This document shows, one piece after another, positions 58,400 to 58,660 of a stretch of 60,644 nt of DNA. Positions within the stretch are counted from its first letter, which is position 1. Every line of letters begins with the position of its first letter. The notes beneath the pieces were generated by a model. It was not told the origin of the DNA. It saw only the letters and a list, made by a program, of their open reading frames with translations, and made no database searches. Origin of the DNA: Vampirovibrionales bacterium (GTDB taxonomy: Bacteria > Cyanobacteriota > Vampirovibrionia > Vampirovibrionales > JAJTHC01). Location of the stretch: contig JBJTUH010000086.1 of NCBI GenBank assembly GCA_046080605.1, positions 1 to 60,644 of the forward strand, in the 5' to 3' direction. The position numbers and the translations under genes were made by a program.

Positions 58400-58660
58400 C
58401 AAAAGTTTTATTTTTTATGAAATTTAAATTATTTATTATCATCGTCATCGTCTATAAGGTCTGTTGAGTCTGTCAGAAACTGTCAAACTCCTTACATAGC
58501 AAAGGATACACATTTTGTAATACTGTCAATAACTTATGTCAGTAACGCTCTGTTTCTTGACAGCCTTTTTCGATATCGTTCATTGGGTTTAAATACTGTT
58601 TAGAAGCAGTGAAGGTGTTTAGGGTGTTTATTGACAGCTTATGAACACCATTATGACAAT
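58400..58660. other. Putative chromosomal replication origin (oriC) with non-canonical DnaA-box-like 9-mers
   Basis: AT-rich tract at about 58401-58439, trinucleotide run (ATC/GTC) at 58438-58452, and about ten TGTCAnnAA/TTnnTGACA-like 9-mers at 58462-58658, upstream of dnaN. The + strand appears to change from C-rich to G-rich here. Confidence 0.75.

Follow-up and report, generated by a model that had tools for sequence, protein, structure and literature searches.

A probable chromosomal replication origin with altered, predicted DnaA boxes upstream of dnaN in a Vampirovibrionales genome

The stretch of DNA analysed here, referred to as the window, is a whole contig (C86) of 60,644 bp from a Vampirovibrionales bacterium, whose assembly amounts to 2.39 Mb in 186 contigs and is 94.6% complete. 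It carries dnaN, and the 588 bp of intergenic space upstream of that gene (58245-58832) hold at least nine 9-mers resembling DnaA boxes within 197 bp, together with an adjacent AT-rich tract. The segment 58394-58660 is probably the chromosomal origin of replication (oriC), built on altered, predicted DnaA boxes and lying directly upstream of dnaN, away from dnaA, which is encoded on another contig (C151).

Eight of the 9-mers had been listed in a preliminary description of this DNA, and all eight are found inside the dnaN-upstream space at the coordinates and on the strands of Table 1; the minus-strand string running from the box to the AT-rich tract also reads as it had been given there. At positions 1-4 and 7-9 the boxes agree with the canonical TT(A/T)T and ACA, respectively, and at position 6 they have G, or A in two of them, in place of the invariant canonical C. 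They are arranged as two opposed arrays, in which five minus-strand boxes face the AT-rich tract and four plus-strand boxes face away from it. None of the 253 exact TTWTNCACA matches in the assembly falls within 58245-58832, in agreement with the earlier statement that canonical boxes are missing upstream of dnaN. The same description had worded the difference as CC changed to TG. Because the canonical box leaves position 5 free from the outset, only the second half of that wording holds: what has changed is C6, which is replaced by G, or by A in some boxes.

Table 1. Features in and around the dnaN-upstream intergenic region, in window coordinates (G001, sister genome of the same genus)
Feature	Coordinates	Strand	Remarks
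dnaN (DNA polymerase III beta clamp)	57057..58244	-	395 aa; all three Pfam beta-clamp domains, E 6e-26 to 1e-16
AT-rich tract, candidate DNA-unwinding element	58394..58443	.	Top 45-bp A+T window of the 60.6-kb contig, 0.91; 0.925 in 40-bp windows
3-nt-periodic repeat GAC GAT GAC GAT GAT AAT AAA	58432..58452	-	Direct reading
Spacer: GACC (GC cluster), then TTATA	58453..58461	-	GCC(C) cluster then T(T)TAT kept in 7 genomes
Weak ninth box GACTCAACA, nearest the AT-rich tract	58462..58470	-	Same position in G001 is TAACTGACA, a better box
Box TTTCTGACA	58471..58479	-	Identical in G001
Box AGTTTGACA	58481..58489	-	Sequence read
Box TTATTGACA	58524..58532	-	G001 counterpart TTACTGACA
Box TTACTGACA	58537..58545	-	G001 counterpart TGACTGACA
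Box TTCTTGACA	58554..58562	+	Orientation switch point; G001 conservation partial
Three tandem boxes: TTATTGACA (58628-36), TTATGAACA (58639-47), ATTATGACA (58650-58)	58628..58658	+	11-bp period; first two kept in G001
Flanking open reading frame, right boundary of the intergenic region	58833..59336	-	167 aa; no Pfam match

The density of these boxes is exceptional in the genome. The motif TTNNTGACA has 19 matches in the window versus 13.5 +/- 3.5 in shuffled sequences, and five of the 19 lie inside 166 bp. Among 471 matches genome-wide, the locus is the sole place with at least four per 300 bp; the Poisson probability of the 166-bp cluster is 3e-10, or about 4e-6 once multiplied by the count of 166-bp windows that the genome contains. 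When up to one mismatch to TTWTNGACA is allowed, the locus is again the top cluster of the genome, with eight matches. If a lineage-specific motif is admitted, the 9-mers thus form a unique cluster in the register of DnaA boxes. A position weight matrix gave eight matches here versus five at the next-best cluster, a comparison that is circular, the matrix having been built from the locus itself, and that was made at too loose a threshold. Exact TTWTNCACA reaches at most two matches per 300 bp, and no canonical cluster occurs anywhere in the assembly; with up to one mismatch it has three matches at the locus, all of them TGACA or GAACA sites, and five other places hold six, a comparison that serves as a proxy check of the earlier remark that standard origin finders would overlook the locus. 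The preliminary description had named a canonical cluster elsewhere, for example beside dnaA, as the finding that would tell against its proposal. The 94.6%-complete assembly yielded no such cluster, the neighbourhood of dnaA on C151 included, and in 17 family-f4 genomes the sequence downstream of dnaA yielded no box clusters either.

Comparison with the sister genome G001, in which dnaN is 90% identical, revealed a shared gene order of dnaK, a transaldolase-like gene, a TrbI-like gene, dnaN, the gap, a small open reading frame and gltX. The alignment of the gap itself is diverged, and the boxes, the CCTTATA spacer and the AAATTTAAATT core of the AT-rich tract remain as conserved islands. The tract lies next to the boxes and is by composition a candidate unwinding element.

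GC skew, which had been proposed as a check, places the switch at the homologous site of G001. Along the whole of its contig C39 (173,270 bp), skew is negative in 11 consecutive 5-kb windows left of dnaN (80-135 kb) and positive in all seven windows right of the site (37 kb). The cumulative G-C minimum at 136,232 is separated by only ~50 bp from the boxes at 135,966-136,188. In G030, which belongs to another family of the order, the minimum at 407,536 is within 2.5 kb of dnaN (408,967-410,091). In the window itself, skew amounts to -0.084 over 1-58,400 and +0.049 over the last 2 kb, and the cumulative curve is flat from 57.0 to 58.7 kb.

The separation of dnaN from dnaA is general in this group, as the two genes are unlinked in all 29 order-level relatives having both. 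The experimentally defined oriC of Synechococcus elongatus is near dnaN, and cyanobacterial dnaA and dnaN are unlinked as well (PMC7198777). The present site shares the placement upstream of dnaN for which the preliminary description had cited Synechococcus.

An altered DNA-binding domain of DnaA had been anticipated from the altered boxes. The gene lies within C151:1531-3819 and its product matches Bac_DnaA with an E value of 2e-66, so it is still a DnaA. Its open frame has 762 codons, with a long low-complexity stretch rich in Ser, Pro and Gln from the N-terminal part to the AAA+ domain, and that of G001 is built likewise with 776 codons; the usual length of dnaA is about 450 codons. Alignment of domain IV to the structures 1j1v (E. 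coli), 3pvp (M. tuberculosis) and 8btg (B. subtilis) showed RDHTT in all three and RKHTT here, exactly where the change had been predicted. In E. coli numbering, Asp433 is replaced by Lys and His439 by Tyr, the latter as in M. tuberculosis, and Arg399, Pro423, His434 and Thr435 are kept. These six residues make the base-specific contacts of domain IV (PMC2533591, PMC7561715), so that the canonical set is incomplete here by D433K and H439Y, and the 433-434 dyad (DH) has been called highly conserved (PMC5043019). The helix starting from residue 434 reads 5'-TnCACA-3' and Arg399 reads 5'-TTA-3' (PMC5742627); the boxes of the window retain the part read by Arg399 and the ACA, and are altered in the middle.

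Loss of Asp433 extends far beyond this genome. In 30 Vampirovibrionales genomes, residue 433 is Lys in 11, Gln in 11, Arg in four, Ser in two, Gly in one and Thr in one, and in 18 genomes of the other Vampirovibrionia orders it is Lys in 16, Thr in one and a gap in one; Asp occurs in neither set. Genus g5 (G005, G010-G018), of the same family as the present genome, mostly has Gln433 with a one-residue deletion before it. By contrast, 30 of 31 sampled genomes from other Cyanobacteriota classes carry Asp433, the remaining one giving no match. Among 80 loci mostly from other phyla, 72 have Asp, five could not be parsed and three have Lys, the last being two Vampirovibrionales and one Gastranaerophilales.

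Position 6 of the boxes follows the same division. Upstream of dnaN, 9-mers of the form TTNTN-x-ACA were counted over 700 bp and both strands, with the Cyanobacteriia serving as positive control. In 30 Cyanobacteriia genomes, position 6 is C in 166 of 182 cases (A 9, G 3, T 4). The corresponding counts are A 35, C 9, G 14 and T 12 in 30 Vampirovibrionales genomes, and A 26, C 3, G 13 and T 63 in 23 genomes of the other Vampirovibrionia orders, so that only 12 of 175 Vampirovibrionia boxes have C, with T, G or A instead. Within the other orders, three to eight TTNTCTACA boxes occur in 10 of 12 Lys433 genomes, in none of six Thr433 genomes and not in the single Gln433 genome, a comparison in which four genomes were without a fetched DnaA locus. 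Enriched words within Vampirovibrionales are TTTTGACA or TGTCAATA in G019 and G021, and TTTT(C/A/G)AAC in G007, G026, G029 and G030. The Cyanobacteriia share R432K and H439Y with the Vampirovibrionia yet keep D433 and C6, which makes residue 433 the distinguishing one. The lineage-specific box put forward in the preliminary description is thereby supported and widened to the whole class.

Clusters of TTNTCTACA with T at position 6, followed by DnaA-trios of canonical polarity (CTA or TTA) and an AT-rich tract, were observed upstream of dnaN in G033, G045, G151 and G173 (loci L223, L221, L217 and L231, respectively). The box nearest the trios in G033 is of the TGACA type.

The arrangement of the elements in the window had been likened to the basal unwinding system (BUS) of B. 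subtilis. On the minus strand the order is a strong box, a weak box, a GC cluster, a short T-rich stretch, a 3-nt GAY repeat and the AT-rich tract, and in this respect the likeness stands. Counted from the strong box to where the GC cluster ends (TTTCTGACA, GACTCAACA, GACC), the spacer measures 13 bp; across seven genomes it ranges from 12 to 15 bp and is exactly 13 in four of them, 13 bp being the most frequent length among BUS spacers (PMC8287927). The pair of co-oriented boxes, the GC cluster and a spacer of about 13 bp are thus all present. The whole module recurs in those seven genomes, which represent three families of the order, with GAY-GAT repeats at the same position, and the box strand in Vampirovibrionales runs through a short T(T)TAT stretch into 5'-GAY GAT-3'.

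The likeness fails at the triplets, which are real and conserved but lie on the wrong strand and in the wrong polarity. Canonical trios read 5'-CTA-3' on the TTATCCACA strand and 3'-GAT-5', that is 5'-TA(A/G)-3', on the other (PMC8235120 for H. pylori, PMC7561715 for C. difficile, PMC5742627 for E. coli in review), and the E. coli oriC sequence examined here has the same polarity. The dnaN-upstream region of the Cyanobacteriia genome G183 consists of two boxes, GGCC, four CTA triplets and an AT-rich tract, and that of G083 is similar; canonical polarity is also seen in other Vampirovibrionia orders, with CTA repeats in G173, five TTA in G033, and likewise in G151. A BUS would have at least three trios of the form 3'-(G/A)A(T/A)-5' on the strand that meets the box with its 3' end, and there the longest NAN runs do not exceed those of shuffles. 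The GAT repeat was accordingly rejected as canonical trios, its box strand reading 5'-GAT-3' and not 5'-CTA-3'.

Three frames were compared over the seven modules against shuffles, with p-values that overstate the significance, as the modules come from related genomes. Strict NAN trios on the canonical strand gave a longest-run sum of 22 versus a mean of 20.8 (p=0.35). The A-centred frame on the opposite strand, which is that of the preliminary description, gave 29 versus 21.3 (p=0.006), and a frame on the canonical strand that allows either A or C in the centre gave 41 versus 30.7 (p=0.004); both of the latter reflect one and the same periodic repeat. The C/A-centred frame in the window reads 3'-GCT ACT GCT ACT-5'. 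In B. subtilis, a central C can substitute for the central A of a trio through contact with the Asn187 amino group (PMC10721633). The trio-pocket residues Glu183, Asn187, Ile190, Arg202 and Glu228 (B. subtilis numbering) are kept in the present DnaA, with Ile193 changed to Leu and Asn196 to Lys. As a hypothesis, the repeat may act as C-centred trios on the canonical strand.

Taken as an origin, the segment would work as follows. A lineage DnaA carrying Lys433, a change in one of the six base-contact residues, would read the TGACA boxes, oligomerise on them and open the adjacent AT-rich tract; judging from the sequence, both the binding of these boxes by DnaA and the start of unwinding in that tract are inferred. 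A wider reading, plausible but held tentatively, is that the Vampirovibrionia recoded the recognition between initiator and origin, Asp433 and C6 having been lost together. Asp433 would have given way to Lys, Arg, Gln or Thr, and position 6 to T in most of the other orders (TTTTCTACA type) and to G or A in Vampirovibrionales, where the trios would perhaps also have passed from A-centred (3'-GAT-5') to C-centred (3'-GCT/ACT-5').

Several observations weigh against these interpretations, among them the null result for strict trios given above. With just 2 kb of the window remaining to the right of the site, the switch in the window's own skew is based on little sequence. The complete genome G005 has no skew switch at dnaN, and in genus g21 (G045, G033) dnaN and the minimum are 18-20 kb apart. 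In roughly half of the 30 Vampirovibrionales genomes, all 10 members of genus g5 among them, no box cluster was recognised within 700 bp upstream of dnaN. Loss of Asp433 was probably a single event at the base of the class, so that the covariation with position 6 amounts to about one independent contrast. Genomes with Lys433 have G6, A6 or T6 according to lineage despite identical helix residues, from which it follows that the new base is not dictated by residue 433 on its own. A second TGACA array in the same genome fits DnaA acting as a regulator, and equally another repeat-binding factor.

In this second array (G000:C147:9147-9213; locus L143, 4148-4214), six TGACA 9-mers follow one another on a single strand with an exact period of 11 bp. 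The array overlaps a promoter made up of a -35 TTGACA, 17 bp and a -10 TATTAT, at the head of a gap of ~1 kb that holds no convincing open reading frame or Rfam match. Four of the boxes and the promoter are kept in G001 (C20, ~149.5 kb), ~4.5 kb downstream of dnaA. The array may represent a promoter under DnaA control, driving an unknown transcript, or else a titration site.

The most serious competing explanation, although an unlikely one, accepts the segment as a real oriC and assigns the TGACA 9-mers to another protein, such as a response regulator on 10-11-bp direct repeats, with DnaA binding some other, unrecognised element. CTGTCA repeats at 10-11 bp resemble response-regulator sites of the Pho-box-like kind, and a repeat array over a promoter is the architecture typical of repeat-binding regulators; the second array on C147, with its exact period, its promoter overlap and its retention in G001, can be counted here, as can the variable position-6 base among Lys433 genomes. 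No phosphate genes are found near the C147 array, and the Pho-box-like version stays a minor rival. In favour of DnaA, an 11-bp spacing is reportedly also found in the arrays of low-affinity DnaA sites of E. coli oriC (Rozgaja, 2011). What further speaks for DnaA as the reader is that the 9-mers keep seven of nine canonical positions and share both register and genomic location with the canonical boxes of Cyanobacteriia, that the genome offers no other candidate cluster of DnaA boxes, and that a base-contact residue of DnaA is altered in exactly the clade with altered boxes.

Slightly less probable again is a cluster of DnaA-box-like sites that regulates dnaN transcription, the origin being elsewhere, for example in unassembled sequence. 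The division of the 94.6%-complete assembly into 186 contigs and the position of the site 2 kb from a contig end leave room for it, and clusters of DnaA boxes outside oriC are known (PMC2533591). The skew minima, ~50 bp from the homologous boxes on the 173-kb contig of G001 and within 2.5 kb in G030, argue for an origin at the site itself, as do the adjoining tract, the most AT-rich of the contig, and an order of elements equal to that of the box-box-GC-trio-AT modules upstream of dnaN in Cyanobacteriia. That -35-like TTGACA hexamers have accumulated in this AT-rich intergenic region by chance or in connection with promoters is very improbable. Four boxes do contain TTGACA and one promoter-like pair occurs at 58631-58660, whereas three sites are CTGACA and two are ATGACA or GAACA, all in a common 9-mer frame, and the cluster is unique in the genome and kept in G001 amid diverged flanks. 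A promoter reading was also tried and rejected, with one sigma-70-like site in 58200-58900 versus 1.9 expected from shuffles, and a box-to-TAT distance of 12-15 bp in seven genomes, which is below the sigma-70 spacer length. An origin with altered DnaA boxes therefore remains the preferred reading of 58394-58660.

Among known systems, the cyanobacterial oriC (S. elongatus type, box TTTTCCACA) has the same placement, upstream of dnaN with dnaA elsewhere (PMC7198777). Opposed arrays are likewise seen in the Cyanobacteriia genomes G083 and G183, where the dnaN-coding strand then carries two co-oriented boxes, a GC cluster, triplets and an AT-rich tract. The difference lies in C6 (166 of 182 boxes), Asp433 and 5'-CTA-3' triplets there, as opposed to G6 or A6, Lys433 and 5'-GAT-3' on the same strand here. 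The E. coli oriC (R boxes, TTATCCACA; 1J1V) resembles the present site in the TT(A/T)T and ACA of its 9-mer, in its two opposed arrays and in the orientation of box R1 toward the unwinding element, which is that of the minus-strand boxes here, and R399, P423, H434 and T435 are common to both DnaA proteins. It differs in an invariant C6 (TTATNCACA; PMC5043019), in Asp433 and His439 instead of Lys and Tyr, and in not being located beside dnaN.

The BUS of B. subtilis (box 6, box 7, GC cluster, DnaA-trios, AT-rich tract) agrees in order, in two co-oriented boxes of which the second is weaker, in the 13-bp spacer and in the five trio-pocket residues that are kept. Its trio is 3'-GAT-5' on the strand abutting the box, whereas the repeat here reads 3'-CTA-5', or 3'-(G/A)CT-5' in another frame. 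Divergence of boxes together with substitutions in helix 5 of domain IV has precedents in the Helicobacter box TCATTCACN and the 12-mer of Thermotoga maritima (PMC5043019, PMC7561715, PMC10225481). Epsilonproteobacterial boxes nevertheless keep C6 (core TTCAC), with a highly conserved DH dyad at 433-434 (PMC5043019), in contrast to the loss of both C6 and Asp here.

No report on the DnaA boxes of Vampirovibrionia or Melainabacteria, and none naming TGACA- or CTACA-type boxes, was found in the literature searched; subscription papers, supplements (such as the tables of PMC8287927) and DoriC lay outside the search and may hold predictions. Both C6 and the DH dyad in helix 5 of DnaA are regarded as nearly universal, and origin finders depend on them; a class that has lost C6 and Asp offers a natural experiment on how DnaA reads DNA. 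Recoding, if true, would mean that specificity has switched naturally within the most conserved protein-DNA pair of bacterial replication. The motifs would be usable for locating origins, and hence for estimating replication rates from metagenomes, in the mostly uncultured Vampirovibrionia. An origin upstream of dnaN would also predate the split of the cyanobacteria from their non-photosynthetic sister class, and the non-canonical triplet repeat bears on the generality of the DnaA-trio rule.

As to the remainder of the window, an Rfam scan of 58245-59343 matched no structured RNA, and the only Rfam matches in the window are a thiamine pyrophosphate (TPP) riboswitch at 41360-41496 (+), with 56 bits, and a tRNA at 43504-43584 (+). 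The open reading frame at 58833-59336, placed between the probable origin and gltX, has a weak syntenic homologue in G001, with 32% identity over 121 aa (E 8e-12), whereas the DNA of the genes flanking it is 72-82% identical to that of G001; either it encodes a small protein that evolves fast, or it is no gene. On the other side, the open reading frame 55806-56987 (+) beside dnaN, of 393 aa, has a sub-threshold TrbI match (22 bits versus a cut-off of 35) and is syntenic in G001.

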